DNA of 61,204 bases, the filler included, from Dugesia japonica (lineage: Eukaryota): the NCBI GenBank assembly GCA_001938525.1. It is 6 parts of 6 records of this genome, joined end to end, with 100 filler letters (N's around TTAATTAATTAA, not from the genome) between each part and the next. Parts side by side here need not be neighbours in the genome. Positions count along the whole stretch, not along the records: positions 1 to 12,808 come from MQRL01214339.1; 5 more parts are not named here. The stretch is one strand, 5' to 3'. The first letter of the stretch is position 1, and every line of letters begins with the position of its first letter. Shown here in pieces: positions 1 to 39,400 of this stretch. The translations under genes were made by a program, and so were the position numbers. The notes beneath the pieces were generated by a model. The model did no database searches, was not told the origin of the DNA, and saw nothing but the letters and a program-made list of their open reading frames with translations.

Positions 1-277
1 TTTTAATTTTCTAATTCACATTGAAAATTAGAATAGAAAATAAAAAGTATTCTTTTATTTCAAAATAAAAGAAAAAAAAGGATTTAATTTGTTTAAATTA
101 TTATGTTAATTTAAATGCTTACCATGTGCGAGAAAAAAAGTATTGATTCTCGTCTGATTGATTATAATGATGTAGTTTATACAAATTTGATCAATCAGAT
201 TGAGAATCTAATGAAGAAAATCATCCCAGATATGATAAAATCGAGATTTCAAATATATATATATAGAGATTTTAAAT

Positions 278-590
278 GAAACTAATGTTTCCGATGGACT
301 GAGCAATGCAAATTGCTTCAATGATGGTTCCGAAGCAGTTGTTTCAATGCATCCAATTTCTGACCCAGATGTCGAAATCCACAAAGAAATTAAGTCAAAT
401 ACTGAAGAAATTCAATTAAGGAAGTTTTAATTGAAACTAATGTTTGCGATGGACTGAGCACTGCAAATTGCTTCAATGATGGTTCCGAAGCAGTTGTTTC
501 AATGCATCCAATTTCTGACGAAGATGTCGAAATCCACAAGGAGATTAACTCAAATACTGAAGAGATTTTGAATGAAGTTTTCAATGAAAT
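278..590 (+). repeat. Two-copy tandem duplication, ~155-bp period, inside a degenerate acidic reading frame
   Basis: gaaactaatgttt(c/g)cgatggactgagca... starts at 278 and again at 433. Both copies translate as ETNVxDGLSxANCFNDGSEAVVSMHPISDxDVEIHKEI. Confidence 0.9.
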
Positions 591-2912
591 TCAGTCCAAT
601 ATTGACAATATTTTAAAGCAAATCAAATCAGAAAAATCGGTAATTCCAAGCAGAATTGAGCTCCCAAAGAATAAATAAAAACAAGCTTTATGTCATGAAA
701 TAAATCTTTTAGTAATAGTAGTATTGTTATTATATTGCTAATATTATCATTGTTTTTACTATATTCGCCATCGAATTTAATGAATACTCTTGTTCGTATA
801 TCTAATGACTCTCATAATTTGATTGAACTTCCTATTTTTTCAACCAACGTAATCTCCACTGAAATCACCATAGATTTGAATTAATGATTTAGAAAACCTA
901 AACTAGAATCTGACGGCATTACTCTATATTTAATAAAATATAAAAAATTTATTCAATATTTTTCTTTATAACATAAGTAATGAATGGAGATTATATACTC
1001 TGGAAAATATAACAATGATTTTTCACAGGCTACATAACTCACATAAGCGTGATGCTAGAACTTTGAAAGATAGGCAAAACCTAACCCCACAGGACCAAAT
1101 TAATCAATGTTGCCACAACGTGACCGAGCGTTAGTGGTACCAATATTGGCACTGTACTCATAACCTGTGCACTGAGGTATCTTGATCATCCAGTTTACCC
1201 GAGTTCATGTTGTACCGAGAATTTCGCAAAAAATCGTTTACCTATTTAATACATTTAAATACATTTTTAGTCAGTCAAATGATCCTAGTGATTTCTGACT
1301 AAAATCTAGTCATAAACTAAATAGTTTTTCATTTGTAATTTTGTCCTTGTCTATAAGCTCAGTAGTTTTCGTTAGTAATAAGTTGTAATCTCAATGATAT
1401 ATCATTAAATGTTCAACTTTATTTTCGGTTAATTCATCGTTTATTTTAAGTGAACAATTTACGCGCGAAATCTTCTATTTTGATTAGAAAAGATAAAGAA
1501 GATAGCGACGACCAAGAAATTACATGGGAATTTTATAAGCTAGTGAAACATTAGATGGATGCCAAAGTAGCCAAGGCTCAAGCTAAGATACATCAAAACA
1601 AAAAAAATTGCTGGAAATTCTAAGAGGAAGTGGTCCGTTCCCACAACCAGGAACAATTGTAGAAAAAATAATTGGATATTTTTGCTGAATCATTAAAATA
1701 ATTAGATAAGGACAAAGATTACCTCGTGCAAGAAGTTCATAATGTAAAAGCACGGGTACCAATCAACCCTATTGTAATAGATACATGTACTCAGACCCAT
1801 CTCTGAAATATGATTTTATTGCAAAAAAATTCTTGTTATACTTACAAATTGAACTTGTTTTATTTAACTTAACTTTTATAAGATGAATGATTGACTCTTG
1901 TTCATTTCAGTGCGTGCATACCAGTTGCTGACTCCATAAACAGATGCCATCGTTTGTTACAAGGTCTAGGTCTAGAACGCCATTACTATAAACGACACGC
2001 AAGAATGTTACTTTGTCATATAAAATAAAAGAACTAACCCATTTTGCAGCTAGAGGTCACACGCAAGCGTCAATTATTCTTAGCAAACTCGTCTATAAAT
2101 TGCTTTCTTCATAAGATAGCATTTCTTATGCAACACATCTTTAATCTGACAACGGTTCTTAGCTGTCGATCCGTAGAATAATAACAATGACGCAGCTTCA
2201 TTCAATATTGACGATGAAATCCCACCTAGTCGGTGATCTTGTAGATGTGTTAATAAATGCTAATATCCAAGAGTCTTCTCAAATTATATTTTGTGTTCCT
2301 GTCTCGAGCATAAGTTAGAGGATGATTTTGAACCCGGAAATAAAGGAATAGGAGCATGCACTAAACTAAGGGTTGTGAGTCACCAGTTCTATTCAGAAGA
2401 TTTAGTTAAGAGGCACGATATTTAATTCTTAGCGGAATTTTACTGGGTGACCGACTCACTCACGGTCATTAAATAAAACATTCAACCCAGATGAAACCCC
2501 AACATTGTTTTGTTTTATTATTACTACTTTGTTTATTGGCAAGGTCGTAAGATACCACCCTGTAGTTTGTACAGTCTCCCAATATTTGAATTTGAATTGC
2601 TGATACCAACACTGCATAGAATAGGTATGGTTAGCCTTTAAATGTGTGATATTGACCTCTTCATTCTTATGTCCTATCTTGTAATCTGTTATTGTTCCAT
2701 CGGAAATAAAAGCTATGTAGTAATTGAATGTTGATTCAACCGTTGTTTAATAGAGCATCTGTGATACCATTTACGTAGTATTATTTTCTCCATAGGTACT
2801 GCTTAGGGTTGGAATTCTTTTAAGCACTGACCACATTAAGACAGCTAATTATTGCAATAACGATAAATGTTTATGAATACATTTGTGATCTGAGTGGATA
2901 TCTATTTCTAGA

Positions 2913-3890
2913 TCATTGAGTATTTGTTGAAGGCCTTTTTATCTTTTCCATGACTTTTATCTCATTATCTATATCTTGATCGCTATTTGTATAATATTTT
3001 TTGCATCTATTTGCATGTACTAGTATAGGTTCCGCTGTTCTGTTAGAACACAATTGCATTACCAAATTAGTTTCAGTCGTTTTAAGTACCTCATAAGGTT
3101 CCTTATAATTTCGTATCCACTTTGGTGATAAACCTTTGGTATTATTATGCTCGTCGAGCATTACTAAATCTTGATCTTTGAACTCGTGTGGCTTAGTTTT
3201 TTTATCATATGCCTCTTTCATTTCTTCTTGTGAATATTTAATACTTAAGTTAGCTTTTGGCCAAGCTACCTGCATTCTATCTTTTCGTTCAAACAGATGT
3301 TTATTGAATGTTTCTGTGAACACTAATATATCATCAATGTATACCATTACAAATGGTAAGTCTTCTAAAATTTTATCCAAAGTTCTTTGAAATGTCATGG
3401 GGGCTCTTGCGAGTCCAAACGGCATAACAATATACTCGTAATGACCCATATTTGTTGAAAATGCGGTCATTCCTTTAGTTTCCTCAGTGCCCTCGATTTG
3501 ATAAAAGCCCTTTTGTGCATCTCTTACGAAGTAATTCCATGCTTTTCCTAATTTATCGAATATTCATTCTAGTAATGGTAATAGATAGACTGCCCTTGAC
3601 TGTCACTTTTTTAATTTACGAAAATCGTTGCATAATCGTACCATTCCGTTCTTGTTAGGCACAATTATTAGTGGAGACTGGAATGGTGATTTACTGTGAC
3701 TGATAATTTTATATTTAAGCATCAGTTTAACTTGTTTTTTTACATTTGCTTCCAATTTCTCAGGTATTGGGTATATTCTCAACTCGATCGGTTTATCTGT
3801 TGTGAGAACGATTTTATGCTCCAAGATATTTGTATTTCCGAGATCATATTCGTGTTTGGCGAAAATATGATCGAATTTTCTTAGTAACAT
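2913..3890 (-). pseudogene. pol: Gypsy pol: RT fused in frame to the integrase C-terminal tail (RNase H and IN core deleted)
   Basis: SPFQSPLIIVPNKNGMVRLCNDFRKL, TAFSTNMGHYEYIVMPFGL and YIDD are followed directly by SQEEMKEAYDKK...FKDQDLV...LSPKWIRNYKEPY...VHANRCKKY. Confidence 0.9.
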
Positions 3891-4258
3891 ATTGATGAGA
3901 ATTTTTCTTTTCTATATAAGATTTTACAATCGCAACATGGTGCGTCATAGTATTCAATATCTGGATCTCGTTCTATGACAGATAATGTTGAAGACTTCTC
4001 AACTATCTTATCATCTAGTATATAAATAACTCCCATACTTGGATCTGGATATAATGAAATCGGTCTGATATCTAAATTTCTAATTTTTATCAAAAATCTA
4101 CCATCTTTGACCTGGCTAACGCTACAGATTCTCAGTATACAATATTTTCCCACCAACAGTGAATTTGACTCAAACAGTACTTCTTCTTCCTGCTTGAGTG
4201 AAGTATTGATAGTACATATGGTTTCTATCATTGGATGTATCTGTTTATAGATATAGGC

Positions 4259-4630
4259 TTAATGTTCATTGTATTTCTTTTTACGCTTTCTGTTTAGTTT
4301 TACCAATTGTCCTGTAGCACAATCAAAGACCACATCTTTGAGCTTATTTAACACTTCCATACCCGGTATGCCTTCTACTGGACATCTTCTCATAACTTTA
4401 ATTTTGTGTTTTATATCTTGATCACATAATTCTATATTACAATCTAGATATCCTATTATATCTAATTTTACTCCGTTTGCTGCAATAATATCTGATTGTT
4501 CTTTAACCACATTTTAAGTTTCTGTTTTATTCAGTAGATTGGCTTCTATTATCGTTCTGTCTGATCCTAAATCTATCATAGCGTAGATCACATGTCTATT
4601 AATTCTGATTTTAATCGTTGGCTTGTAAGC
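4259..4630 (-). pseudogene. Retroviral-type aspartic protease
   Basis: TIKIRINRHVIYAMIDLGSDRTII (degenerate D-T/S-G), IIAANGVKLDIIG, and GIPGMEVL at the ILG.D position. Confidence 0.8.
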
Positions 4631-5399
4631 ATAATCTACATTTACCATGAGAGTTGACAAAAATGTTTAAATTCTACATATGTTCTCTCTTTGTGTATCA
4701 AGATTTGGTTCTGTTTGATTATTCATACCATTTCTTTCTTGCAATTGATAGTTTTGATTCATCAAGTTTTGTCTAACCTGCTTTGGGTTCATATTTGATA
4801 AGTTTTTTATTCTAATTTTGCTCTTTTTCCTAGTTTTGAAATGCTTTGTCCAAATCTTCCTGAGTACAATTTGCTGGCAATTGTTGACCAGTTTGTCCAT
4901 CAAATATAGTGCTTACTAAATCTCGTGATCCTGGTTTAGTATTCACATATTCTAGGATTTTTTCCATGTCCCAGTTGTCTATGTGCTATCTTAATTCATC
5001 TAATCCCAAAGTTGGATATATGGGTGGCGGTAACATTGAGCTCATAGTTGGTGCAATCACATACAATAAAGGATTTTGTGTTGTACAAATTGGAGAATTA
5101 TAAGGTCTCCGAGCTTCCCATTTTGTTTGGAGTTTACGTTGTCTATTATATTTGATATTCTGTTTTGTAATTCTATCTTTTTTGGCTTTACTCCGTTTCT
5201 TAGGACACATATCTATCAATTCGACTATCTCAATCTGGATCAGAACAATAACTACTGTCGCTGTTTCGGCTCTCATAATTGTCATCATCATCGCTTCCTT
5301 GGTCATTTTTATCTGGTTGCAACCGTACCACAGTGTGCTTTACTGTTTCTTGTTTGACTTTTAATCTTTTAATTTCATCGGGATGATGTTTAAACAATA

Positions 5400-7240
5400 A
5401 AAAGTTTGTAAAGAATGAAAACAACCAAATAATTAGTCTCTACGTACATCCATCTATTTTAAATATACTACATGTAACATGTGGATAACAATTGAGTGAA
5501 TGCCACTTTGACGATTACACAAATAGCATAAATTCATACTAATCCAGTGACAAATACTTCAAATTCACTAAATTTTCCCCAGATTTTTTGTGCTACATTT
5601 CTAATTTGATCATATCTCATTTTGATGATAAACTGTTCAAATTGTTTCTGATATTCTTCGTTCTCTTGTTTGTGGGAAGAAAATCATTTTCATTGCTTGC
5701 TATATATTTTTAGGAGTGTAGATTCCCATTTTTCTTAAGTCATTGAGAGATTTGAATTCCATATTATCTGTCAGTTTGAAAATATCTAATGTTTGTACTG
5801 GTTTAGATGGTGGTTTACGATCAGGTAATGAAATCCAATGGTTATTCGCCTTGTATAATGGTGATATGTACGGATTACATACTGCTTCCTGAGGTTTCGC
5901 ATTTTTCCATAAAAACATATGAGTTATTGGACTCATAAATCTCAATTTATTCTCATAGATTACCGGCAATTCCATTGTGCTTTGATTTAAATTAGCAAGT
6001 GACACTTCTATAGGTGCACACTGATAACTATAAATGGCTTCGCCAATTATCAGTCCGAAAACACTTTTCTCCAACAACATTACAGTGACCAAATCTGGAT
6101 TTACTACTGAAATTGCCAATCTATGTTTTATAATTTCCGTGTTTAATTTGCAGTTATTCGTAATTACCTCTTCGTACATGTCATTAGACTATAATTGCAA
6201 ATTATGATATACATAATCGACTTTATTATTTATATAGTTTGTCATTTTTATATCTTAAGCATTTATCTGCTTTGCAGTTGGAACACTAGTTTTTGCTAAG
6301 TACAACCCTTTATAGTTAGGTTCATATACCTTGTGAGCACACTTTAATTTCAACTTCTTTCTAATGAACCTTATTGTCTCGTTAGGATCGGTAGATACTA
6401 ATACCACGGGAGTATTTTCCTCCTCTATTTCATCTTTTCCCATCTGTTTCAAGGTGTTTTGAACTTGTTGTTTAGTTATTGTCTGTACTTTGTTGTTATT
6501 GAACAATTTAAATCTTGTCCTTTTAGTTTTGACTCAAGTTCCATTCACTTTTGTAAATTATAAGCCCTTTAGTAACGATAATTCGCCGAAATCTTGCCAT
6601 GTGGCATATATAAGAGTTGCAAATCTAGTTGTACAACTTGAGAATTTTGAACTATACTTGAAATTTCCCACCATTCTACCAGATTTGACCTCGAATACAC
6701 CCTCGTATTCGAGTAATTCCACAGTTTAGTCTTTAATGTCTACTACCCAATTGACAGTAGTACCCTATCTTATTTTTGGATGTCCGACACAATCTCTATC
6801 TGCGTCAATAGGACCACCTATTGTTATGGCTTCTTCCAGCGTTTTCCCGATTTCTGCTTTTAACGAAAATTGATTATTGATTTTTAACTTGCCAGTTATA
6901 AAAGCATCCTGACAGTCTTCTGGTAACACGTTGACTGATCTTGGTATAGGTTTTGCCGACAACACCTTGTACGGCTATGAACTCCACAATAGTATTCAAA
7001 TACTGCTTTCTGTACTTGACACTCTCTCACTTTAGTGCGGTAATACTCGGTTTCTTGATAAATATAATATTTAGCTGGTTGAGCAACCTGCAATCTAGTA
7101 GGATACGCTTCTTTACATTNCATTGCATCTACTAGGGAATAAATTCCTGCTGGGCTAGGATTATGACAATCGTAAGCAATCAGCTCATTAGTTTGCCTTA
7201 ATATTCCGAACATCATTAATAGCTTTAGTATTATTTGAGT
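5400..7240 (-). pseudogene. env: Envelope-like class III viral fusion glycoprotein (chuvirus G / gB-type env), fragmented
   Basis: A hydrophobic signal-like stretch (IILKLLMMFGIL) precedes LIAYDC. Further motifs: REC...YYCGVHS, EDCQDAF, YINNKVDYVY...MYEEVITNNCKL...LAISVVNP...GEAIYSYQCAPIEV...ELPV...FMSP...C...YKANNHW...GIYT, then KIWGKF and a hydrophobic TM segment at ~5480-5580. Cys spacing follows chuvirus-type glycoproteins as recalled. Confidence 0.8.
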
Positions 7241-7349
7241 AGGATTCTCATTTCCTCTTTTAGGAATATTCATTTCCTCTTTATGCACCACATAAGCTTC
7301 TTGATTCTGTACATCCTCAGATACTTCTGGCAATAGCAACATAGTCTAT

Positions 7350-8130
7350 TGGTGATCAGATGGCTCCACCAACAATATATTGATTAGGGTAGTTTTACTG
7401 GGTAAATATCCAACATCAACTAAGTATTCGTCGTCATCAACTTGATTACCCGATATTACTATCAAACATGTTTGTATGTACATGATTCCGATATCCGCTT
7501 TCAGTTTTAACACTCTTGTGAAACATGAATATCTCTTTATTTTGTGGTACTATCTCACCGGGTACTCTTATTTCGACAACAAAATGGGCCTGACTGGCCT
7601 TGTCATCCCTTATGGTTTTCCCATTTTTTTCTAATTAACATTCGAATTTCATTTTGATAACTGCTTGGTTTCTCAACCAATGGTAATATCAGTGGTATTA
7701 CTTCTTTTCAAACTTCAGGTGAGATATGTAATGTCAACATCCAACTTAATATGTTTTTTTTATCCTTAACTTAATATGTGTTTTTATCCCCTCTTAGAAC
7801 TGAAGAAATCTCGATTCCCAAATTCTGTATGATAGATTGAGCGTCTTGTACTTGCTCCAATTCCATATATTCTATAGCAAATGTGCTATCCGGGCTAATA
7901 ATAGCTACTTTCACTACTTTCTCTTTAACCTGTAAATTGGTTTTTAATCCTGGTAAAATCTCGCTTAGCTAAAGAATATTACCCTCTTCTAATTTTTCAT
8001 CGTATAAATATAGATAAAATTCCCTGCGTTTGACCTTTTTCAATTGCGCTATTATTTTAGCGACTGGTTCCTTTACATTTAATTCAAAGTTAACACTGTT
8101 CCCTTTTGGCAGTTGTATTTTTACTTGAGC
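7350..8130 (-). pseudogene. Two to three tandem ubiquitin-like (beta-grasp) domains within the retroelement
   Basis: VKIQLPKGNSVNFELNVKEPVAKIIAQL...FYLYLYDEKLEEGNIL*LSEI (~7955-8130) and FVVEIRVPG.../TRVLKLKADI...LIVISGNQVDDDEYLVDVGY...TLINILL (~7370-7590) parallel ubiquitin's pattern (TIENVKAKI...LIFAGKQLEDGRTLSDYNI). A weaker middle copy lies at ~7740-7920. Confidence 0.55.
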
Positions 8131-8967
8131 ATCTTTTAAATCCCAATTTTTAGAAGAGTTTGGCAAACTCATCGAATCATTAACATTAGAATTCAACTTC
8201 AAAAATTTATTAAATTAAAAACTTTAAGAACATTAATTGTTTAAACAAACAAATTTAAAAATTCATATTTTTAAACAGAAAATACTAAATATTTAATTTT
8301 ATATTTTAATATATTTAAATTATTTTTGATTTTTAAAAAATACATTAAAATAAAAATCTTTTATTCATTTAATTTTATATTTTATTCTATATAAAATATA
8401 TTTTGATTTTAAAAAAAATAACCTAAATAAACATCTTTTATTCATTTAATTTTATATTTTAAAAATCCTTAAATTTTAGTAATTTATTTTATAAATTATT
8501 TTCTTTATACAATTTTTAAAATACTTTTGATTTTAATAAATTCCGTTTTCAAAAATAAAAAATTTAAATCTGTTTTTTAAAAAACTATCTTATACCAATC
8601 ATATAACAGTTTTCCACCAATTTTCCTGCTTATTTCAGCAATTGGTTTGTAATAGGCTTTCTCTTGCCTGATTATGGACAACATTTGTACTATGTCATCT
8701 ACTTTTTCTCCATCTATCATTATAAGTTAATTTTCCTAACTGAACACTTAATTTATCCTGACAATCCGTTCTGGATTCAAATATATTTTTACAACTTTCA
8801 AGAATATTCGATTCTTGATTGTTTTCATTATCCTGTTTTTCCACAGTGTTTTCTGGCCTGATAACTTCTCCAGCCACCACCAGCTCTTCCTCTTCAAGAT
8901 TTGCTCTCCTGGATGGATCAGTAATAACAAAAATCGAATTATTCTTATTAACATCTAATTTTGCGAG

Positions 8968-9720
8968 TCAATTCCTTTCATCTTGAATTTCCAATTTGAA
9001 CTGCTGCAGATAAGTTAAACTCTTTTCTGAGTTGATCATATTCACTGTTGATTGAGAACCTTGGGCTGCTTGGCCATTTCCGTTATGTCTCATGAGACAC
9101 AAACGCTTCACGTGTCCTAAATTTCCACATTCTTGACACTTAATTATTCCATTAGAATTAACTTCATCTCTAACAACAGTGTTTTTCATTTTTGTCTTGC
9201 CAACTGCGGCTACATCGTCCTTTTGTTTGCATTTATCGCATTGTAAATACCTTATTCTGCAGTTTTCTACTGTGTGGTTATTCCTACCACATTTAGTACA
9301 TTGAGTACTCTTATTACTTTCATTATTATTACTATTATTACTAACATATTCATTTTGATTTTGCTGACGATTATAAAATTGTTGGCTGAAGATTCTCCTT
9401 GCATCTTAAGGTAAAATTCGGTTAGTTAATGCTACTCTGCTTCCCATGCTGCTGGTCTATTTGCTGCTTCAACTGAGTTCATGACGTCATTGAACACGTC
9501 TCTTGCTAATCCTTTGAGATATATTGGCAGACGCTGGATCATTATTCCATTCATATGCACATGCTAATTGGTAATATTCCGATATTGAACTCCGGAAACT
9601 CACCTGGATTTCTACTGAATACTTTTAATGATAACGTTGGAAAATTATATTTGATACCACTGCTGCTGGTACTCTATTATTATTATTATTACTATTATTA
9701 TTCACATCAATTTGATAATA
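8968..9720 (-). pseudogene. gag: Gag (capsid N-terminal part plus three zinc knuckles), frameshifted
   Basis: LKVFSRNPGEFPEF and IQRLPIYLKGLARDVF are Gypsy capsid-like. Knuckles: CTKCGRNNHTVENC, degenerate CDKCKQKDDVAAV, and CQECGNLGHVKRLC. Confidence 0.85.
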
Positions 9721-9789
9721 AATCAATTTTCCGTTTCTAAGGATAATTATGAAAAACTGTTTTGTCCCACAGATAATTTTTTATCACAT

Positions 9790-9800
9790 CGGGCTCACCA
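9790..9800 (-). promoter_or_regulatory. tRNA primer-binding site TGGTGAGCCCG
   Basis: The - strand reads ...CTAACA-TT-TGGTGAGCCCGATG, the canonical LTR-end/PBS geometry, just upstream of gag. The cognate tRNA was not identified. Confidence 0.75.
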
Positions 9801-9802
9801 AA

Positions 9803-10236
9803 TGTTAGATCCTAGTGGGTATAGGTACCCAACAAGAAATTATCTGACTTAAAAGTTAAAATAATATTAGGCTTGTAGTTAAATAATTTCTTTATTTATT
9901 ATTAATAACAATATAATAAATAAAGATAGATCAATTAAGATAACACCTTTTGCTTTAAATAAAACTTTATTGAATACGAACAACTTTTACAAAATGGTTT
10001 GATACAAATATTAAGCAAATACAAATTTTAGGGATAACTTTTCGAGCAACCTGCTCCTATATAAATTAATAACAGATCTCAGTAATATCTACTGACCTAA
10101 AGATTATGGTGGCACTAACAAATTGCATCACACCACCTTTACGCAATCAAAACAAGACACGAGATTTTTGGGTCTCGCTAATTTTTAAAATAAATTTTAG
10201 GAAATTTAGGATACCTGCTAACAATTATGTCTAACA
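9803..10236 (-). repeat. Putative 5' LTR of the Gypsy element
   Basis: Bounded by 7-bp inverted termini TGTTAGA...TCTAACA and followed on the - strand, after 2 nt, by a TGG-initiated PBS. The outer boundary could alternatively be 10223. Confidence 0.65.
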
Positions 10237-12342
10237 GTATCCTTCAAATGATATTTTAATTAACTTTTAACTACAAGTCAGTAACTGACTATTTGGAAAT
10301 TAATAAAGCAAAATAATATAAAATAATCAACTAGTGTACAACAGACTTCTAAAACAATTATTGATTTTAATAACTAATCTTTAACAGACTTTAAAATAAT
10401 TTATCAATTAACAATAAAGCTATTCTTTAACAGACTAAAATAAATTATCAATTATAAAAAAAATCAGCTACTAATTATTTTAAATAAAATCCCAGCTATT
10501 AACAAACTGGAAATCGATTAAAAAAAACTGCAATAATTTTACTTTTCTAATATTGAAATAATTCCCACAATTTCCTAATTGAATTTCTTATGTAAGTCTA
10601 ATATAAATTTTTCTGATTTACTTTTTTCGAACTGAAATAGAATTTAATTTGTGCAATGATTAAAAACACGTGTCAGTATTTATATCAATCAACTGCACGT
10701 ATAAATTTTAAATTATTTAATTTAATAAAAAAACTTGCTATTTTTAGCAATTTTAAAATTCTAATTTTAGTAAGTATTTATTTTTGTATTTATTTTTTCT
10801 AATTAAAGTGTTAAAATATTTTTATTTAATTTTCTATTTTTAATTTTAATATTTCTTGCTAAATTTAGTCATTTCGTAATTTATTATTTATAACCTTAAT
10901 TGAGTAAAACAAACTAAATAAATTAAGGATAATTTATTATTTTAATTATTCTTACTTATAATGTAACTTAAAATAAACTAAAGCTACCCCCAATCATCAC
11001 ATTTTGATAACAAATAATTATTTTTTATAAATTTTTGACTTATTTTAAATGAAAGTTTTAATCTAAAATTTTAAATTTATTAAAAAATAATTTCTAATAA
11101 AGCATCAAGTTTTAATTTGCTTGAAAAAACAAATAGTGACGGTTATAGATTATTTTGTGAATAAAACTTTTATAGAAATGAGATTTGACTCAAACTCATC
11201 TAACATGAAATATTAAAAATACATTAAAAATATATTTTTATGACAAACAGAAATTTCAAAATTTTAAGAATACAAAATTATTAATACAAAGTTACAAAAA
11301 CTTTAATTTACATTTATTAATGTATAAATAAGCAAAATTATAATTTACTTTTTTATAAATTATTTTTAAAATACAAATTTAAATATTTACAAATCTGATT
11401 TTAATAAATTTCGCTTTAAAATACAAAAAATTCTAATCTGCTTTTAAAAACTATCTTACAATAAGAATATTATTTCGGCAAAATGTTGCAAATTTTTACA
11501 AAAAATCAACTCGTTTAAATACTTGATCATGCACACAGATAACTTAATTATGCAAATAGAAAACCAATAAGATGCATCAACAAACAAAAGTTGTCAAGCT
11601 GATTTTTGCACTATCATGTTAACCAATAAAATTGTTTTAGCCATACTGATTTTTCATTGGTCGAATTTAAACTTTCGATTTTTCATTATCAGGAAAGGTA
11701 CGGGATCGAGTCCGTAAGATTTTATAAAAACCATCTCTTTTAAAAAAATTGTCAACAACTCACGTTATACTTTATTTGCTATGTTCTATGTATTATAATT
11801 AATTATTTCGTTTGAATTTAATCACTCAAAATTTCATAACATGTATTTTCCACATTATCATTTATTAGAATGATTTCACATCATTTGAGATGATTTGTGG
11901 TTTATACTTCGATATATTTTCTAATCCAGCATATTCATTTTTCTGTCATTATTTTACTGGTTTAATAGATTTACAAGTTACTCAGTTTTACTAAAGTATT
12001 TGTCAACTTTGCACTAATTTTGATTCGTAAAAATGATTGAACCAATTTTGTTCATTTTTTAAAATTCACTTAAGTATTTATCTATATATCTTTACATCAT
12101 TTGAACATTTCACCATTGTGAATTATAAACCCGGATATTTTTTTTACCACCTTTTCAGTCAAAAAATTGTTATAATTAAAGGTGAAAGAATTCGAGCTGA
12201 GAGACTATCTTCAAATGATTAAATGAAATTAATTTCTCTCAAGTTGATAAAAAATAAATTCTTAATGCTTTTTAATGAAATAATTTAATTAAAAGATATT
12301 TCTAACAGTTGGAAAACTTTCAAAACAATACAGTAGTGAGAC

Positions 12343-16990: not shown

Positions 16991-17123
16991 GATCCAGTTT
17001 AACTTTTTCAATAATAACTATTATTAATTATTTAATTTAAAAAATAATTTTAATGAGATTCAATGTTTTGTTTAGTGCTAGCTCCGTAAGTAATCACTCT
17101 GTAAATTAAAAAAATATACTCAC

Positions 17124-17518
17124 TCTAGATAATAATTCCATAAAAATGTATAATGTTTTCGTTAGTTTAACAGCACCGAAATATTTGATAATTCTCGAAT
17201 GATTTAAGGACTCCGTGAAATTGTTTATATTATTTTCAATGGACTTTCTCATACATGTTTTTTGATAAATAATTTTAACAGCAAAGTTTTGACCGGTTAA
17301 TGTTTCCTGACATTTGTAAACTGTTCCATAACTTCCTTCCCCTATTTTTTCTTCTTTATCAATTTTGTTTGTTAGTAGAGATCGAAAGTACCCTGTAATT
17401 TCAGTTTTTGTGAGAATCATTTAAAATTAAATTGAAAATAAGACTTACGTGTATGACAATACGTATGGTCACATTTTTCGACGCATTTTAAATTCATTGC
17501 AGCTGTTATTTTATCCAA
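17124..17518 (-). pseudogene. Ser/Thr protein kinase N-lobe (STE/MAP3K-like), two exons 17449-17518 and 17124-17392; remainder not found
   Basis: IGEGSYGTVYKC, FAVK, LNHSRIIKYFG and LYIFME are present. A 56-bp GT-AG intron (17393-17448) keeps the frame, and there is a donor GTGAGT at 17123. No HRD/DFG exon was recognised. Confidence 0.7.
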
Positions 17519-20895: not shown

Positions 20896-21229
20896 TATAA
20901 GTAAATTAGGTTTTTGCATTTTTTAAATTGAAAATATTTAATTTCGGTTTACTTTTGTTTTTATAATTTCTTTCTTCAAAATTTTAGACATATCATCAAA
21001 ATTTTGTTTTCGACAAATTTTCATTGGGGTCTGATTCATCTGATATGATAAATAAAATTATTTTATTGNNNNNNNNNNNNNNNNNNNNNNNNNNNNNNNN
21101 NNNNNNNNNNNNTTAATTAATTAANNNNNNNNNNNNNNNNNNNNNNNNNNNNNNNNNNNNNNNNNNNNTCATATCTATCTACTAAAATATCATAATTTAT
21201 TCATTCATCTGATTCTTATTCAATTTTTT

Positions 21230-23700
21230 TTCAGTGCCCATTATTCATTTCCACACATTCTTGTTTTGTCATCCTCCATTTGTGAAGATCTTGTAACAAT
21301 CTTGTTTTGATCTTACCTGACTTTGCTTCTGTGTGTAGCATTTTACAGTGCACACAATTATAACATCACGACGTGGAAAACATCTGCATTCCCATATAAG
21401 CTACCTTTTTACATGGTCGCCTGGTGATCCCATACAAATAATGCTTGAAGTAATTGCAGAAATAGTACACCACCTACAGTTCTTTCCGTCTAATGCAGTA
21501 ACCCTTCTAATGACTTATCATGTCATGTGATCTGTACGCTTTAACCCTCTTTCTACCGCACTTATTACGCTAAAATAACATGGTTCCGATCGTATCAAAA
21601 CTAGCGTCTGTGTCCAATATTAACTGCTTCCAAATTCGGGAGAACAAAATTGTAGTCAGCATTAGTACAGTTTTTTTAATCTTCGAAAAATGCCTTTAAA
21701 TTCCTTATTCCACACTAATTTCATGTTGCTGAGGCCAATAAATAATTGATCAAATATTTTTGCATTGACCGTATACCCATTGATAAATTTCCTATAATAG
21801 TTTCATTTTCCTAGGAAACTACGCAGTTCACGCAATTCTATCTTCCAAAGCTTTTAATAGCCTCAATCTTCGCCAGATCCGTTCGTATCCCTTCAACACT
21901 AATGATATGGCCCAAAAATTTAATTTCTTGTTTCAAAAATTCGCATACCGTGCTTATAATTCACAATTTCATAATGTAGTTTCTTATCTTTAGGAAACAT
22001 TAAAATTTCTTCCAAGTTCCTTATTGCATCATTTATTGTCAATCACTATTTGCCATCATTTCGTAAAAATTCTCCGGCTTTGCTGGTATTCCGAACGGCA
22101 TTCGAATAAAATAATAATACCAAAGCTTCGTCAAAAACGTCGTTTTATCATGTAATTTTCTCTCTAGCTCTACCTGATAATAGGTGTTGCCCATGTCTAT
22201 CGAACTAAAAAATGCAATAGCATATAACGCGTCTCACATCTCGTTTATGTTAGGCATAGAAAAAGCCTATCCTTTCGTGANNNNNNNNNNNNNNNNNNNN
22301 NNNNNNNNNNNNNNNNNNNNNNNNNNNNNNNNNNNNNNNNNNNNNNNNNNNNNNNNATTCCACACAGAATCTCACTTTCTGATTATGCCATTCTCGAATA
22401 AATTCTGAATCGCCTCCTCAATTTGTTTCTCCAGTTGCTTCACATTGATCGGTTCTCATTTTGTTACAATTCTCTTTTACTAAATAAGTCCATACTACAT
22501 CCCACTTAAGAGCTATTATTACGTTTTTTAGTTTTTGTACAAATTTCTTGCAATTCTTTTTCGTTTCGCATATCTATCGTGCTTACTAATATTTGCCATT
22601 TTTTCACCTTCCCCTATTAGTTTACCAAATTTGACCTCTATGTTATCTATCATTTCCTTTTCATCCCTTTCTTCCCTTGATTTATCTCTCTATGAAACTG
22701 CAATCCAAAAATATTCTGGAAGTTTATTCCGGTGATAATATCTGGAAAAACATTTTCAACTACTACAAATTCAACATTCTTGATCATCTCTCTTAACTGT
22801 ACTTCCAAGCGTACTTAACCCTTCGTTATTAACCCACTACAATTTGCACAACATAATTTATCCTCACTATATTACAAACGGGTTCCCGGTTACTTGCTCA
22901 AACATTTCTCATTCACTTTATTAATACGAGCCCTCGTATCTAAGCAACAATCAATTTCCTTACCTAGAATGCGAACTGTTACACTAGATCTTCCTTGTAG
23001 CCTGTCAAAAACAATGTCTACCAGTTTCCCGTATGTCAATACCCCCAACCCATTCTACTTNNNNNNNNNNNNNNNATTTCCTTTTCTTCAAGAATCGATT
23101 AACTTTCTCAAACACCTTCGCTTAGTGCTCCCACTTTTCTACACCTTGAGGAAATTCTCTACATTCCTCCATCAATAACTGGTCATTACCAATTCCTTTC
23201 TTGGTGTAGTCCTTCCATTTGAATGCATCGTCTTCTCATCAACTTTCAGACTCTCTCCTTCCTCTATCTCTATAGAATTGAAATAATTGTATCGATTTCT
23301 CTGCTCTCTTCCATATCCTATTTTGTTGTTCCCTTTACCTCCTCCCATTTTTGTGACAATTCTTTGGTTTATGTTCCGGCTTATCACAATAAAAACATCT
23401 CCATTTTGTACAACTGCGCTTCTTAAAGCCTGATTCGTCACACTCAAAACATATCACTTGCCTTTGACTGAATAATCCTTGTCCAAATGTCTTATTCTAT
23501 GACACGTCCAACATTCTCTTGTCTCACTTCCTGGGCACTGAATTCTTACATGTCCCTTCTTTCTACAACGACAACACTCAATTTCCCTGTTCGCTTGTGG
23601 TTCTCTTGCTCTGGAACAACAAGCTGAGGTGGCTTCTTCCATTCATTTCCACAACTTTGATATAATTTCTCATCGCATTAACATGTTCTTTTTTCTTTTC
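21230..23700 (-). mobile_element. Degenerate Ty3/Gypsy gag-pol
   Basis: Knuckles CCRCRKKGHVRIQC and CWTCHRIRHLDKDY; protease CLLDTRA; RT remnants (MPNINEM, FFSSIDMG, RMPFGI, FLGHII); RNase H remnants. Confidence 0.8.
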
Positions 23701-24436: not shown

Positions 24437-27400
24437 AATTTTAATGCTGGAAGAACAAATCAGATTATTAGAAACTTCTCAAAATGAAGAATTAAAGAAG
24501 AAAAGGAAAGAACTAAAAGTTACAATGGTAAAACATTTAAATATCATATATGATTTTTAGCTTTAAAAATTTCAGGAAAGCCTTCAACAAAAAAAAGAAA
24601 TGGAACATGAAAAACACAAATATAATGATAAGTACTATATTTTATATCTACTTTATTTTATTCATGAATGACTAATTAAAAAGATGTAATTTTTGGAAAT
24701 TACTTGCAATTTTACATTAACAATCTTGCTTTCAGTGCACATTCTTTTAATAAGAATTAGTTTGAAAATATCTGGAATATAATTTTATTGGTGAGGTGTC
24801 ATTACAATATTTTTAATAAGTAGATAGATAGTAGCGTATGAGCCTACCCCCTCCCCACCGGCAAAACTTGGATAAACTTTGACCTGAGGTCTAATTTTCT
24901 GACTTGACCTTTGACCTATGTAGAAATATACGAGTTTGACCTTTGACCTGGTGCATAAATATCGAAATTTTTGTTTTAATCATAAACTAGGCTGAACCTT
25001 GACCTGGGCTCAAATTTATCTAAATTAATTTAATTTTTTCTTTTAATCAACAAAAATTATTAAAATATACTGGTCTGACCTTTGACCTGGTGCTGATATT
25101 TACTAGTTTGTACTTTTAAATGATGCTGAATTATTGTTAATATTTATAAGTGGCCAAGTAAACTCTATTGTAATTGATTAAATTATGCGAGCGACTTTTA
25201 ATTAAAAACTTAACATTGATTTAATATTTTGTTCGTGAATAAATTAACTACTTACAAATTATAAGTATTAGGTAGTTGCATTAATTCTAGTCGTTTGTTT
25301 TAATTAACTAACTTATTAAATATTTCAGCGGTAATTTAAAAAAATCGGTAAGATTTGTTAAGTATTAATATTTAAATGTTAAAATAATGGTATACTATTT
25401 AGTTAAGTTGTACAGCAAACGAAAACCGATCTATTTAATATGATTAGTTTTATTCCAAAAAATGCACATTTGCGGGAGGCGTTGCTTTTTATGGTTTTCA
25501 TCTCAAAAGAAGTGTTGCAGAAAGTCATAGGATGGTTTCAGAAGTTTATGGCATGCTGTCGAGAATGGTTTCGGCAATTCAAAATGGGTGACTTTGATTT
25601 GCAGGATAAACAACGTCCAGTTCGACCAAAGCGCTTTTCAGATGAAGATTGGAAAAAGGTGTTGATCAAAGATCAATCCGAAACAATTGAAACAATGTCA
25701 GAAATCATTAATGTAAATAAATCTTCCATAAGCAGACGACTAAAAGCCATTGGATACAAAAAAAAGTCGGTAAATGGTTGTCTCATCAATTTAAAGAAGC
25801 AGATATCGCAAAACGATTAGACATTCGTCAGACGCTGCTCAGCAGGCAAAGGAAAAGTCCTTTTTACATCGCATTGTTACTTGTGATGAAAAATGAATTT
25901 CTTATGAAAATCCGAAACTAAGAACACCATGCGTGAAGCCTGGTCAACCAGGAAGATCAACACCAAAACGAGACTTGCATGGAAACAAGGTGATGTTATC
26001 CATTTTTTGGGATCAAAGGGGGATTATTTATTTTGAGCTTCTGAACAAACGTGAAACGTTTTATGGTCGGCATTATCAACAACACTTAATAAAATTGAGG
26101 CAAGCATTGCACGAAAAATGGCCAGACTATTTCAATAGACATGAGACGGTGTTTTTACATCATGATAATGCTCAACCCTACACTTCGATTTTAATGAGGA
26201 ATAAGATAGCAGAATTCGGATGGGAAGTTTTACCTCATCTGCCATACTCACCAGACATCGCACCAAGTGATTACCACCTTTTTCGCTCAGTGCAACATGG
26301 TCTTTGTAAACAGCATTTAAAAAAGGATTATGATGTCCAGAAATAACTTGACTATTGGGTAAATTCCATGAAAGAAAATTTTTTTTATCGTGCAATTCAT
26401 TTTCTGCCAGAAAGGTGAGAAAATGTTGTTAGCAATGATGAATGAATGAGATGTTATGTAAAAATAAATGTATTTGGAGTTTTTATTTACATTTCTTATT
26501 ATTAAAAAACANCGAGCATTAATGCAACTACCTAATAGATAAAATTATTTAGAAATGATTATGAAAAATTTTAAAAATATATTTATGTTGCATTTATGTT
26601 GCACATGTCATATTTACAAATTATAATTAGATAAAATTATTTAAAAAATAAGAAAAAAACATTTTAAAAATGCATTTATGTTGCGAATGCAGTATTTATG
26701 CAATATAACACACATAGTTCCTAGGTATTGATATCTATGTAATTTTAGTCAGCTCTGTAATCAGGGTTAACTTTGATGTTTTTTTAAAAATATTCTTTAT
26801 ATTCTGAATTAATATTTATGTAACCTAAATTTTTTCTATATTTTCCAATGATATCTATGTATGTAATTTCTGAGCAGTTTTTCCCTATGTTTTATGTGGG
26901 AATTTGAAATGACTTCTGTCATTTTGTAAGCATTTTTTTATGTAATTGTAATGCCACTTATATAATATTCATGTTTTGTAATGACTTCTATGCACTTCTT
27001 ACGTATTTTTACGTATTTACAATTGAAATATTTATGTAAAATAGCACACAAAAAGCAATTATGAGAAATTTATTTAAAACATACACGTTTTTTATTACAC
27101 ATAAAAATTCAATCAGCATGTCTTCATCAATCATTTCTTTATCATTTATTTCCTTATTGGACTGCTTATCAATCATTTCATCATCAATCATATCCTTATT
27201 TTTAGGAGTATCAGACATTACTTCATCATTAGTATCATCATTTGGTTGAGTATCACTCATCTCTTCCTATTTCGATGCATCTAATTCAACTATTTCTACA
27301 TCATTTTCTTGAACATCAACTACTATTAAATAATTATTTACATTTTTATGTAAAAAATAGAAAGCTAGGCAAACGACGATCTCCAAAAATTTGTTCCTTA

Positions 27401-30400: not shown

Positions 30401-33400
30401 TTGTTTTACATGTATTCATTTTAAATTATAATAAATGAATATATCACATTCCTCCCTTCAATGACTAATTGTATTTTTAGATTTGGATTTCTAGTATCGC
30501 GAGTTGGATATCTTTTCTCATTAACCGCCTTGTTTGTTCCTCTCCTGCTCTGAATACTTGTACTTCGAGATGTTGTCGTTTTGTCATTATTGCCGACTTG
30601 TGAAATGTCTTTGATCTGATTATAATTCTTTGTATTACTTATTGATATTTTTCAATCTATATTCAAATATACGTCCACTTGTTTTTAATTGAAATAATAA
30701 TAAATGGTTCAATAAATCTTTGACCGAAAATAGTAGGAAAAAAACGTTTTGGAACCACAAATAACCGTCAATAATTTGTTTTGAATCTATTCTTTTTAAC
30801 TGTCTAAGTTAAACGTATTTTGAGAAATAATCAATCACTCCCAGAATATACTTAAACCCATCAATAGTTGAATTATACGGCCCACTTTTATATATATATA
30901 TANNNNNNNNNNNNNNNNNNNNNNNNNNNNNNNNNNNNNNNNNNNNTTAATTAATTAANNNNNNNNNNNNNNNNNNNNNNNNNNNNNNNNNNNNNNNNNN
31001 NNGGTGATACTTTTTATGAATTAGGAAAAAAAACGATGGATTAAAAGAAGAAAATATTGAATTAATTAAAATAGGACATGAATATGGTAAATATGATCCA
31101 GAAGAAATAAAGAAAGCTGTTCAATTAAAACGAACGTATGATAATCAAGACGAAAGAAATGTTTATATAAAGAGCAAAGTTCACGAAATCTTGAATAAAA
31201 CTAAATAAATATCTCAATAATTTGCTATTCCTGTATTTTTTACAAAAATTATAAATATGACAAATATTATAAATATTATAAATATATTAAACGTTAAATT
31301 GGTATTATTATTACCTTTCTTTTCAACGTGAAAATTTGCTATTCTTCGCAATTCTTTGGCTAAATCTATAACAAGCTTTGTTTCTATTAGCCTATTTTAT
31401 TTTTATCATTTTATTTTGCGTAATAATTTTTCACCATTTCTGTGGCCAAATTGGATGATTTATTATTTTTATTATTATTATTTTCTTGAATGTTATCTAA
31501 GTCGAAATTTATTGGTGTATATGGCGATTTAAAAGACTTTAATATTTTTGCATCGTTGTATTTATTTTTAATTTTTTCTAAATAATCTTTACTAAAATTT
31601 TAATCTAAATTCTTTGCAAAATATTGGTCAATTATCTTAATAGTCGTGTTTTGAACTCTATTTTTTTTTTCTGATAATTAGATAATTCATTTATTTTTAT
31701 CTTTCTTTTCTCTGGAGCTAATGGATATTTTCTATTAGCTAATTTTGCTGCGTCATATTTATATTGTAAATCAACTTTAAAAGCATAACCAACGTTAAAC
31801 GTATCATTATGTATTTCTTTTGCTTTATTTAACAAAAATTGTAATGCCTGCATTGAATTTTGATTCACGCAATAGATTACATCTTTTGTCGCTTGTTCAA
31901 AAATACTATAAGGTAAAGATTGACTCATTGAATGTTCACATAAATTATTTGCATCGATATATAATAAATAATTATGTTTTAAGTAAGGTTTATATAATGA
32001 AAGTAGTTCAGATGTTTGATTAATTTTATCATGCATAAATTTCATTGATTTATTTGTATATTTATTATTTTCTTTAACATATCTATCTTCTAACACCATT
32101 TAAACGCCTCCTCTTATTCTTCTTTCAAAGAATTCGAAAACATCTTGGGTTTGTAATAAATCTAATGTAATTCATGTATGTTTTAAACCTTTTTTCCATG
32201 TCAAAGCAGTTGTAGAAACGAAATATGTTTGATCAAATTCTTTTATTGATCTAAATTTTTCTATTGCGTCAGCCATAATATATACGTCATTTTTTGTTAT
32301 ATATAATTGTATAATCAAGGAAATTATAACATTGGAATATCAGAAAAGTATCTTTATATCGCTGATATTCTTTACTTATTCCTTTTCAATGTAATGTTGA
32401 ATAAAACGATTTTATTGGTAAAGGATTAAATCTACAATTTAAATCGCAATGTGTTTCATAATATTTTGTCTGTTTATCAATCTACTCGTGTGGAAACATG
32501 CCTTTTTGTTTAGTTAATTCAAATAATGTATCGGGGAGACTAAATCAAGAATTATTGGTTATATATTTAATTCTTCAGTCACATTATTAGTTGGATCCTC
32601 TAAAATCGTTTGTTTTACATCTTGAGTTAATCTTAAGATGTTAATCTAGCCGATTCTGGATCATAATCAATTACTTCTTCTCATTTCTGTATGTTTCTTT
32701 GAATTGTAATGTGCTTTTGCATGATTCTGTCTTGTAAACTTTAATTTACAAATTTCACAATACAACGGAACTTTCTCTGAATAACCCAATTAGTGGAATT
32801 CAAATGTTCAGTCAAACCCCTCATAGATCTAAAAGTGTTTAGATATTTTGAACAATTAAATCTTGTTCTGTCTTTAACACAACATCGAGATCTAACATGA
32901 GCAGTTAGTCCTGATTTATTTTTAAAAACCTTTTTACAAAGATCATTAGGGACAAATCAACTGATTATTAGACATTTTAAGTATAAACAATTTAATTGAA
33001 TACTTTTTTCTCCTGTTTTAAAGTCGGTTAATTTTATTTTGAATTTCTCATTTTTACCCTTCATAATCCCAAAAGGTCTCATCCCAAAAACTCAAAATAC
33101 AAAAAATCAAACCTGGAGGAGTTCACGAAAAGACATGTAACAAGTAATAGGAAAAAGGTGACTTTAACTCAGTAATTAGCATTATAATGTGCGTCGGCAT
33201 TACTATACCAAAATGACAAATCAAATACAAAAACTCAACTCTTAAATTTATGTATTTTTACTTTTGCCTTATGACTGGAGTAGCCTTTTCCTTTCACTCA
33301 TTTAACTATTATAAGTTAAAGATTACCTTGCTTCAATAACTAGAAAATTAAATAAAAATAGATTAAAAAGACAAATTTGAAAACTATTTTATATTACAAA

Positions 33401-36400: not shown

Positions 36401-39400
36401 TAGTAATCGTTCACCGGAAAGAGATTATTGTAAATATACAATTTTGTTTTTCTAGAAGGAATTAATTGCATTTCGATGTTCTAATCCTTGACGATGTCCA
36501 ATCATAACCGACTGATCAACACGTACACGTCTCACTACTAATTTTGCTTTTATAATGTACGGTTGGGAATTCTTCTCGACTGTTTCTATACCGATGGTAT
36601 ATTTTTAAATTACCGAATCTACATTTCTCGTCAATTTGATTGTCACATTGAATCCCGGCAATAAATACTTTGGTTGGTCAAAGAAATCTAAATTAAGTGT
36701 ACCACAGAGTATTAGTTTGGAAGACTTTTAATCCAACCTTTTCTCTTGTCATCTTTTTTATGATAACCAATAGCTTCAAGAAAAGTGTTTTCGTATCCGA
36801 TCCAAAATTCAATGCTGCTTCAATTACTGCCTTTGTAATTTGTATCTTCAAGTTTTACATTATTTAGTGTTAATGATGCTTTTTGTATAGGGTTTGAAGC
36901 AAATAATTGGAATGAATCATGCTGTTAGTATTAGTTGATGCAAAATCCGTCCCATCATGCTTTATTTTAATAATTAGTAACATATCATTCATACCCAGTT
37001 ATATAATCTTTTGGGTAGATTTCTTCAAATGTGGAGCTTTCATCAACAATCTGCGGTATATGATGGTCAGTTTTTTCGGCATACATTCTTATTTTGCAAA
37101 GATTGTTCCATATAATCGTCGTCTTTTGTTTATAGTCAATGTTATTTTATTTTTCCGCTTACATATTCCAATGCCATGCTGTCCATCAACAACTTTGCAA
37201 TTGGAATTACGAAAACGTCCAATTCTATGCAACCAATTTTCATTACCTTGTTGTTGAATACCGATAAAGAATGACAAGTCTAGACTCATTTGTGGATGAC
37301 TATTCATTGTAATAATAGCTTGATCAACCATTTCAATAATGAATCAATTTGTAATCAAATTGCTTATACTTGTCGAAAATGTAGAGTTAAACTTGTTTTT
37401 TATCCATATGAAAAATCAATCAATCTTCCCGCATAATCACGTATGTTTACTTAAATTTTGTAGATTTATGATGATGATGTAGGTAAATGCATTGGTTTTT
37501 CAAGTCTTACATGTACAACATCACACAAATGAATGCTTATTACTATCAACCCATATACTCCTCAAAAGTCCCACGCGTACATCACCAACCAGAATTGAAT
37601 CGACTATTGATAATTAAATACTAAATTAAAAATTATCATTTTATTTAAACGAAACTTTACTTGTTTACTTATTTTCTTCAAGTTAAATTAGAAATAACAG
37701 ACATCTTAAATTTTGAAAATATATTTATTTACATTTTAATATACAAACAAAACTTCTAACATGGCATAAATCTCTATAAATTTTGTTCACAAAATTAGTT
37801 ACGCATCTTATGGGAACCGCTATCTTTTGCTCATCATTTGACTCAATTAACTGCATATCGTCTTCATTTAAAATCCTATTCAAATATTTAAAATACTCGG
37901 AGGTCTTTTTACCGTTTTTGATAATTTAATGGATTTGTCCATCAAATGAATTTTGATTTCCTTAAATAATTCGTCTTCTTTAAATTCCTTTATGTAATTG
38001 TGCGAATCACTTCTGGAATTGTTCATAACATTTAAATATTTTACCTTAGACGATTTAGACGTGGCTTTTTCATGTTCAGTCTGGCACTGTGAACAATAAC
38101 TAGACATCAGTCTTGACATACCATCAGCGTTGGAATGATATTTCCCTTTTCTATACTTCAATACGAAATGATATTCTGATAGTTTGTTCATACAAGTCTG
38201 AAACTATGGCGTAATTGGTTTTATTGAATTCTTTATAAACTCTAAAGGTTTGTGATCTGGTCTTAAGACAAAACTTTTCTCATAAAGATAATGCCGAAAA
38301 TTTCGAATAAATTCATAAAGACCCAATAACTCCTTCCTGGCCACACAGTATCCTTTTTCATGTGCATTCAACAACCTTGATCCATATGCTATAACAACTT
38401 CCATACCGTTTTGTGATTGACTCAGTACAGCAACAATTCCCGAAAAACTGGCATCAGTATCCAGAATAAATTGACCTTCTGAATTAGGATACTCCAATAC
38501 TGGAGAATTACACAGAGCTTCCTTGATTTTCTCGAAACTCGTATCGCATTCTTTTTTCCACATTATCTCGTGCTTTTGATCTACTGTAGCAAATATAAAG
38601 GAGTAGCAAGTTGCGAAAAATTCTTTATAAATTTCCTGTAATAATTTGCCATTCCAAGAAAGGATCACAATTGTTTAGTACATTTTGGAATTCCAGCATT
38701 AACAATCTCCTTGACGTTTTCCGAATTTGGTTTTAATCTAAATTTCTTTATTGTATGACCTAAAAACACGAGCTCCTCTTGATAAAGTTTACATTTGNCT
38801 GGATTTACTTTAAGACCAGATGTTTGAATTCTTTGAAATACTTCAAATAGAATGCTATCACTTTTTCGCAAAGATTAGAATATCATTGATATAAACTACA
38901 ACGCTTTTAAATAGAATATCTGACAAAATTGTATGCATTAATTTTTTAAACGTAGCCGGAGAGGTTGATAGGCCGAATGGCATGCGATTATAGCAGTACT
39001 AGCCTTTCTTTGTAAAAAAAGTGGTTTTAATTTTATCCTTCTCTTCTAGTTCGACTTGATAATACGCTTGGCCTATGTCTAGTGTTGAGAATATTTTACA
39101 CTCACTAAGATGATCGAATAACATTTGAGGATCTGANNNNNNNNNNNNNNNNNNNNNNNNNNNNNNNNNNNNNNNNNTGAAATCCTGACACATACGAATA
39201 GCTCCATTCTTTTTATTCACCATAAATATGTTTCACGGGCTACTGCATTCTTTTATGATGCCGCTTTTGACAAGTATTTCAATCATCTCATCAATCTTGC
39301 CTTCTAGATGCATCGGTTGTGGCCTTGGCCGTTGACACGATTGCTCGTTGTTTGGATAGGATGTTTAGCTAGGTGTGTTTTAACCAGATCAAACGTATGC

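Follow-up and report, generated by a model that had tools for sequence, protein, structure and literature searches.

The window analysed here is a stretch of 61,204 nucleotides from Dugesia japonica (GenBank assembly GCA_001938525.1), made of parts of six records joined by filler; it is AT-rich (GC 0.19-0.35), decayed transposons are abundant across it, and its first record (MQRL01214339.1) carries a decayed copy of a multi-copy Ty3/gypsy element with the order GAG-ENV-POL and an envelope (Env) of the glycoprotein B (gB)/chuvirus type. The element lies on the minus strand and comprises a candidate long terminal repeat (LTR), a primer-site-like stretch, gag with CCHC knuckles, a stretch with ubiquitin-like (Ubl) segments, env, protease and reverse transcriptase (RT) (Table 1). 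A preliminary description of positions 7350-8130 had seen tandem Ubl domains in frame with, and just ahead of, the envelope protein; the two ubiquitin-pattern peptides on which it relied are real and lie on the minus strand, the first in the frame piece 7627-8142 and the last in 7349-7540. In related proteins, however, these segments follow the CCHC knuckles and hence belong with Gag rather than Env. We read the stretch, with a probability of about 0.6, as a C-terminal extension of Gag with two Ubl domains, each behind a small helical unit, that would serve as docking sites for the host ubiquitin system.

The Ubl stretch, Gag and other copies of the element

Homologues were sought with phmmer among 1.84 billion representatives, scanned in full, and two matches were obtained, the predicted protein P0002 and a Bartonella adhesin, the latter rejected as a repeat artefact. 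In P0002 and its relative P0003, likewise a predicted protein and with 95% identity to P0002 where the two match, CCHC knuckles (zf-CCHC, E 1.5e-5 and 2.3e-5, above the cut-off) are followed by a helical unit and then by Ubl-like domain 1 in one protein. Searches of the window with P0002 and P0003 by tblastn matched 9363-8710 (E 4e-19/5e-19), and residues 254-398 of P0003 matched 8145-7609 (E 4e-18), while residues 347-383 of P0002 aligned to 7540-7436. For the two Ubl-like segments, identity to this related family is 36% and 43%, which exceeds chance (z 20.7 and 8.0; 0/2000 shuffles each). The related family, at about 30-40% identity overall, has equal parts in equal order, an indication that the coding sequence has been conserved over the long term. 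On this sequence evidence the Ubl stretch is assigned to Gag as its C-terminal extension.

The link between Gag and the Ubl stretch is masked in the present copy because a 447-bp, AT-rich, very high-copy insertion foreign to the element lies within it. This secondary insertion is flanked by 5-bp direct repeats (8143-8147 and 8595-8599), has a depth of 3,300-59,000 as against about 10-5,200 beside it, and is skipped in contigs of all four runs (joint 8142-8595); pieces of it are found again at 11341-11458 and 53768-53879. The apparent start codon of the Ubl frame, at 8172, sits within the insertion. Between the knuckles and env there are about 1.7 kb, or 1.3 kb without the insertion, which contain the two helix-plus-Ubl units.

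Regarding membership of the element, depth in the DNA run X2 was 1834 and 1231 in the two Ubl bins, 631-2185 in the env and pol bins and 15-26 in four flank bins, where depth per bin is not to be taken as copy number. The boundary between Ubl-like domain 2 and env is spanned by contigs (e.g., 7052-7437 in run X1). The stretch thus belongs to the element, and the earlier view of the segments as coding sequence of an LTR element with an env, found in other copies, is borne out by depth and contigs. At 7708-9255 and 7760-9274, single X2 contigs join the knuckle region to helical unit B without the roughly 1.5 kb between them (with short sides, hence weak); copies or relatives in which the helix-plus-Ubl unit occurs once might account for these.

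The segments had been described as in frame with, and directly upstream of, env. The reading frame shifts near 7625 and again near 7540, so that the first and last segments are in different frames here, and only the last (piece 7349-7540) shares the frame of the start of env, with a single TAG between. It does lie upstream in that frame, but the last predicted strand of Ubl-like domain 2 is 45 residues away from the hydrophobic signal-like stretch and 64 away from the first env cysteine motif. Besides this TAG, the copy has three other stops (Table 1). Four runs were compared for copy differences (40 of 379 rows listed), and at at least three of the four stops (all within 7346-7971), the TAG ahead of env among them, 95-100% of contig depth differs inside the codon in all four runs; most of the stops are thus private to the present copy, a point that the preliminary description had raised for checking. 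Length differences at the two frame changes were seen in 3-59% and 2-36% of depth. Since at least three of the stops are absent from most of the contig depth, other copies likely carry Gag through Env as one frame. Burro offers a precedent, its Gag, Ubi2/SUMO-like motif, Env and Pol being read in a single frame (PMC6431247).

The absence of a C-terminal Gly-Gly noted earlier was confirmed, none occurring in the three frame pieces of the present copy (the sole copy examined), and with Gly-Gly missing, cleavage by deubiquitinases is unsupported, as had also been stated. The one GG in P0002 falls within domain 2 and not at its end.

Fold of the segments and competing readings

Structural evidence for a ubiquitin fold comes from the Atlas model of P0002 (residues 236-397), in which ubiquitin-family (PF00240) clusters occupied nine of the ten structure rows. 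Residues 242-322 aligned with a 92-aa ubiquitin-like protein over 78 residues with a template modelling (TM) score of 0.71 by target, above the bar for naming PF00240, and a second row above that bar gave TM 0.49/0.39 over 101 residues. Scores of the structure rows were 476-576 for P0002 compared with 51-98 for P0003. Our own model of P0002, although poor, has a strand-strand-helix at 247-276. A beta-grasp fold, suggested as a check on the preliminary description, is thus supported by the P0002 Atlas model, but not by Pfam profiles, the P0003 model or our own AlphaFold models, as detailed below. We consider that Ubl-like domain 1 quite probably has a ubiquitin fold; for Ubl-like domain 2, where the sequence pattern and Atlas rows spanning both halves form the basis, such a fold is favoured with less assurance, model support being weaker than for domain 1. 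The N-terminal piece of domain 2 matched with z 3.6 (16/2000 shuffles).

The weaker third Ubl domain proposed between these two did not hold up. The middle stretch is far shorter in P0003, shows no similarity to Ubl-like domain 1 or 2 (z 0.7 and -0.9), and from its low-confidence beta-beta-alpha prediction would be half a domain at most; it is followed by three helices that repeat helical unit A. Helical unit A resembles residues 201-254 of P0003 (z 5.7, 1/2000 shuffles) and unit B residues 348-397 (z 19.6), and the two units are alike in P0003 (z 5.4, 1/2000 shuffles), whereas the window's own pieces show a weak likeness (z 1.7, 147/2000 shuffles). Residues 180-240 of the P0002 model are helices with a predicted local distance difference test (pLDDT) score of about 50-66; no UBA match was found for the helical unit.

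Regarding function, viral polyproteins can carry an internal signal that is cut by signal peptidase, with the upstream part remaining cytosolic, and integral Ubl domains that lack Gly-Gly usually act as binding surfaces. In other copies, Gag, the Ubl pair and Env would be made as one frame. Host signal peptidase would then cut at the hydrophobic stretch (7199-7243) and Env would enter the endoplasmic reticulum (ER), with the Ubl pair staying at the membrane-near end of the cytosolic Gag piece, probably tethered via the signal remnant. As there is no Gly-Gly, release of Env is likely to be by signal peptidase, with the Ubl domains cytosolic on Gag, where neither conjugation of the domains nor their cleavage by deubiquitinases would be expected. 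Because integral Ubl domains of this kind usually bind, docking to the host ubiquitin system (putatively p97 adaptors, proteasome receptors or ligases) for handling or turnover of the Gag precursor appears the most likely role.

Several observations weigh against this account. P0002 and P0003 each have part of the stretch absent or garbled. The Atlas model of P0003 gave no Ubl row (TM <=0.37, pLDDT 0.42), our own AlphaFold models from one and three sequences reached mean pLDDT values of 35 and 40, and fold searches with the three-sequence model returned only noise. No match to Pfam Ubl profiles (PF00240, PF11976 and relatives) was obtained with HMMER for the three frames, three aligned members of Ubl-like domain 1 or the homologues, nor was there a ubiquitin-like match among PDB sequences at E 10, and Ubl-like domains 1 and 2 show no sequence likeness to each other (z -1.2 and -0.8). 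Regarding the single frame, none of the rows listed covers the stop at 7771-7773, no more than 2-59% of depth shows the length differences at the frame changes, the stretch is not covered from end to end by any contig, and no long protein uniting env and the Ubl extension was found in the protein searches, which are weak tests. In three raw RNA runs, 30, 275 and 250 reads fell on 10.5 kb, in both orientations and with a depth of at most 1.15 in the Ubl bins, and thus no clear transcript of the element among these few reads.

Given these points, the stretch might be a conserved accessory part of Gag with another small alpha/beta fold, its ubiquitin likeness being a coincidence of pattern together with one noisy model. 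The lack of profile and PDB-sequence matches, the P0003 Atlas model without Ubl and the blank Atlas feature searches are all in keeping with such a fold. The ubiquitin clusters in nine of ten P0002 rows, with scores several times those of P0003, run counter to it, as do a strand and helix spacing that fits ubiquitin and a Ubi2/SUMO-like motif reported for the matching region of Burro in the part of its description available (PMC6431247). We regard another fold as unlikely, although it is the alternative that survives best.

The Ubl pair might instead open a separate env frame, with its own start or on a spliced RNA, and form a cytosolic leader of Env rather than a part of Gag. GAG-ENV-POL elements have been described with three open reading frames (ORFs) in the accessible text of an errantivirus survey (PMC13524379), and most depth lacks the TAG before env. 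This arrangement is nevertheless improbable: knuckles, helical unit and Ubl-like domain 1 are in one protein in both P0002 and P0003, the sole nearby start codon sits in the secondary insertion, and no joint is seen in the RNA reads, which are few.

Decidedly less probable is the pestivirus-like processing signal that had been proposed, in which a host ubiquitin hydrolase would cut behind the last Ubl domain and free the N-terminus of Env. The position of the Ubl domain, upstream of env and in frame, would suit such a signal, and the mechanism is known in cytopathic bovine viral diarrhoea virus (BVDV); according to the part of the source available, however, it needs cellular ubiquitin that is cut by hydrolases exactly at the released protein, and therefore does not fit (PMC8310069). 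The present copy has no Gly-Gly, 64 residues and the signal-like stretch separate domain and env, and there is no sequence similarity to cellular ubiquitin or its relatives, whereas pestivirus inserts are pieces of cellular mRNA. The preliminary description envisaged capture of a Ubl array; a recent capture from a cellular source is likewise not borne out, no cellular ubiquitin-like sequence matching. Lastly, a host gene fragment or passenger that entered this one copy and is no part of the element is largely refuted, for although the stretch adjoins an AT-rich, host-like repeat, its depth is on a par with env and pol, contigs cross both the Ubl2-env boundary and the insertion site, and a family at 36% identity has the matching order.

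Anatomy of the element and other features of the window

Table 1. Features of the Ty3/gypsy element copy, listed along the minus strand; positions count along the window.
Feature	Position	Strand	Basis or remark
Candidate 5' LTR, 421 bp, 6-bp inverted ends	9803-10223	-	putative LTR
Primer-binding-site-like stretch, begins TGG	9783-9800	-	two bases past candidate LTR
Gag nucleocapsid piece, CCHC knuckles	8968-9405	-	Pfam zf-CCHC E 0.013-0.026, below cut-off
Helical unit A, before Ubl-like domain 1, split over two frames	8595-8760	-	match to P0003 201-254
Secondary insertion, 447 bp	8148-8594	.	depth, skipping contigs
Ubl-like domain 1 (predicted), 75 aa, stop at 7969-7971	7918-8142	-	36% identity to P0002
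Middle stretch, predicted beta-beta-alpha, possible half or decayed Ubl, stop at 7771-7773	7765-7917	-	model pLDDT 30-37
Helical unit B, three predicted helices, stop at 7708-7710	7627-7764	-	pLDDT 50-62
Ubl-like domain 2 (predicted), divided by frame change near 7540	7349-7590	-	match to P0002 347-383
TAG between Ubl-like domain 2 and env, private to present or few copies	7346-7348	-	contig depth
Acidic/polar linker and hydrophobic signal-like stretch (7199-7243)	7199-7345	-	Kyte-Doolittle 1.68 over 15 aa
Env ectodomain, gB/chuvirus-type, and transmembrane stretch (about 5500-5557)	5500-7198	-	Pfam
Aspartic protease	4337-4627	-	PF09668 E 2.5e-6, RVP 1.5e-5
RT pieces, directly into integrase C-terminal-like piece	2545-3911	-	RVT_1 E 1.7e-15, MLVIN_C E 0.06

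The primer-binding-site-like stretch is presumably comparable to a tRNA-Trp primer site. No partner for the candidate LTR was found within the window, and multi-copy depth continues past it to about 10500. At the other end, multi-copy sequence stops near 2520-2550, as marked by a depth step and a unique flank contig (1823-2545), so that the multi-copy span is about 7.7-8 kb, with a gap in pol. In the pol of the present copy, the order is protease then RT, and neither RNase H nor an integrase core was seen. The env piece contains several stops and a frame change near 6975 and matched PF24664 (E 5.8e-9 and 2.2e-38), BDV_G (2.6e-4) and Glycoprotein_B (1e-3); the stronger PF24664 match is situated between the knuckles and the protease, and the transmembrane stretch at the env end has a hydropathy of 2.37. 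By eye, env is nearest to Smed_errantivirus_4 among six Schmidtea mediterranea rows (51/98 positions, hand count). A region of about 200 codons that lies ahead of the protease, past the env transmembrane stretch (4700-5340, minus strand), has no Pfam match, and a beta-rich coding tail behind the integrase C-terminal piece (2545-2900, minus strand) looks fibronectin-III-like by eye only, with no such Pfam match.

Elsewhere in the window, a second decayed gypsy-like element with knuckle, protease and RT pieces lies at 21200-23600 (minus strand); its knuckles match those of P0002 (E 4e-4), whereas the Ubl-like part of P0002 does not match it. Pieces recognised by eye include a mariner-like transposase at 25407-26343 (plus strand, from translation), a gypsy-like RNase H region at 37883-38674 (minus strand) and a 155-codon open frame resembling a family-B (Polinton-like) DNA polymerase at 31635-32099 (minus strand). 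The N-terminal piece of a protein kinase (Pkinase, E 7e-14) with an exon-like end is present at 17106-17420 (minus strand), and 201-nt inverted arms, 89% complementary, at 54198-55790 are likely a DNA transposon remnant.

Known relatives and biological meaning

The preliminary description knew of no such module in an LTR element. This fails because Arkhipova and Yushenova described, for the polyprotein of Burro, a Ubi2/SUMO-like motif (PF11976) that comes after gag and before a mononegavirus-like env in the same frame and, in the part of their paper available, presented ubiquitination-linked domains as a theme (PMC6431247). Burro/GYPSM1, a giant Ty3/gypsy element of Schmidtea mediterranea, shares with the present element a CCHC Gag followed by a Ubl motif and an env between gag and pol, but its ORF1 of about 4,900 aa also encodes MATH, BIR, BCL2, ankyrin and RING domains, with one Ubl motif named in that text (PMC6431247). 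Burro exceeds 25 kb, compared with about 7.7-8 kb here, and no Pfam matches to MATH, BIR, BCL2 or ankyrin were found in the pieces of the present element that were scanned. Judged by these sequences, the present element is not Burro, being compact and without other accessory domains in the pieces scanned.

The order GAG-ENV-POL with a gB-type env is known from nematodes, bryozoans and flatworms (PMC13524379). The HSV/gB-type errantiviruses Smed_errantivirus_1-6 are alike in gene order and env class, and env is about half identical to that of Smed_errantivirus_4, although env divergence indicates a separate family; the word 'ubiquitin' is absent from the main text of the survey, as far as it was available (PMC13524379). 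Cytopathic pestiviruses likewise have a ubiquitin-type fold within a viral polyprotein, but their inserts are near-exact cellular sequences cut by hydrolases at the NS3 N-terminus, going by the available part of PMC8310069, whereas the domains here are diverged, without Gly-Gly and far from the env start. The accessible part of PMC11410931 holds general genome features only.

Type II integral Ubl domains, as in Rad23/Dsk2/Ddi1, UBX proteins and USP7, are non-conjugatable beta-grasp domains in larger proteins, placed beside small helical domains. The predicted layout here is alike, but the present domains have no profile match to any of these. In the literature searched, outside which were Grohme 2018 with its supplements, Sacco 2022 and Repbase, no compact errantivirus was found to be described as having a helix-plus-Ubl unit in tandem. 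Thus, the present element is likely a compact variant of a layout known from giant planarian elements and not a first; the novelty lies in a family that is compact and has its helix-plus-Ubl unit in tandem.

A more speculative extension, doubtful as a whole, is that flatworm GAG-ENV-POL errantiviruses long ago acquired the helix-plus-Ubl unit as a Gag module, since duplicated, which shares a common origin with the Ubl motif of Burro; with the remnant of the env signal keeping it at the ER, the module would recruit p97 or proteasome machinery and thereby connect the envelope with assembly of the capsid, standing in for the matrix or late domain of retroviruses.

Domains of the ubiquitin pathway occur in the env-bearing gypsy elements of planarians, among which Burro is of a size that defies dissection. 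The compact family isolates the helix-plus-Ubl module and suggests that it is more than an oddity of Burro; its domains of 75 residues suit structure solution and partner screens, and may have a bearing on the coupling of capsid and membrane in a Gag-Env polyprotein that has no matrix domain.
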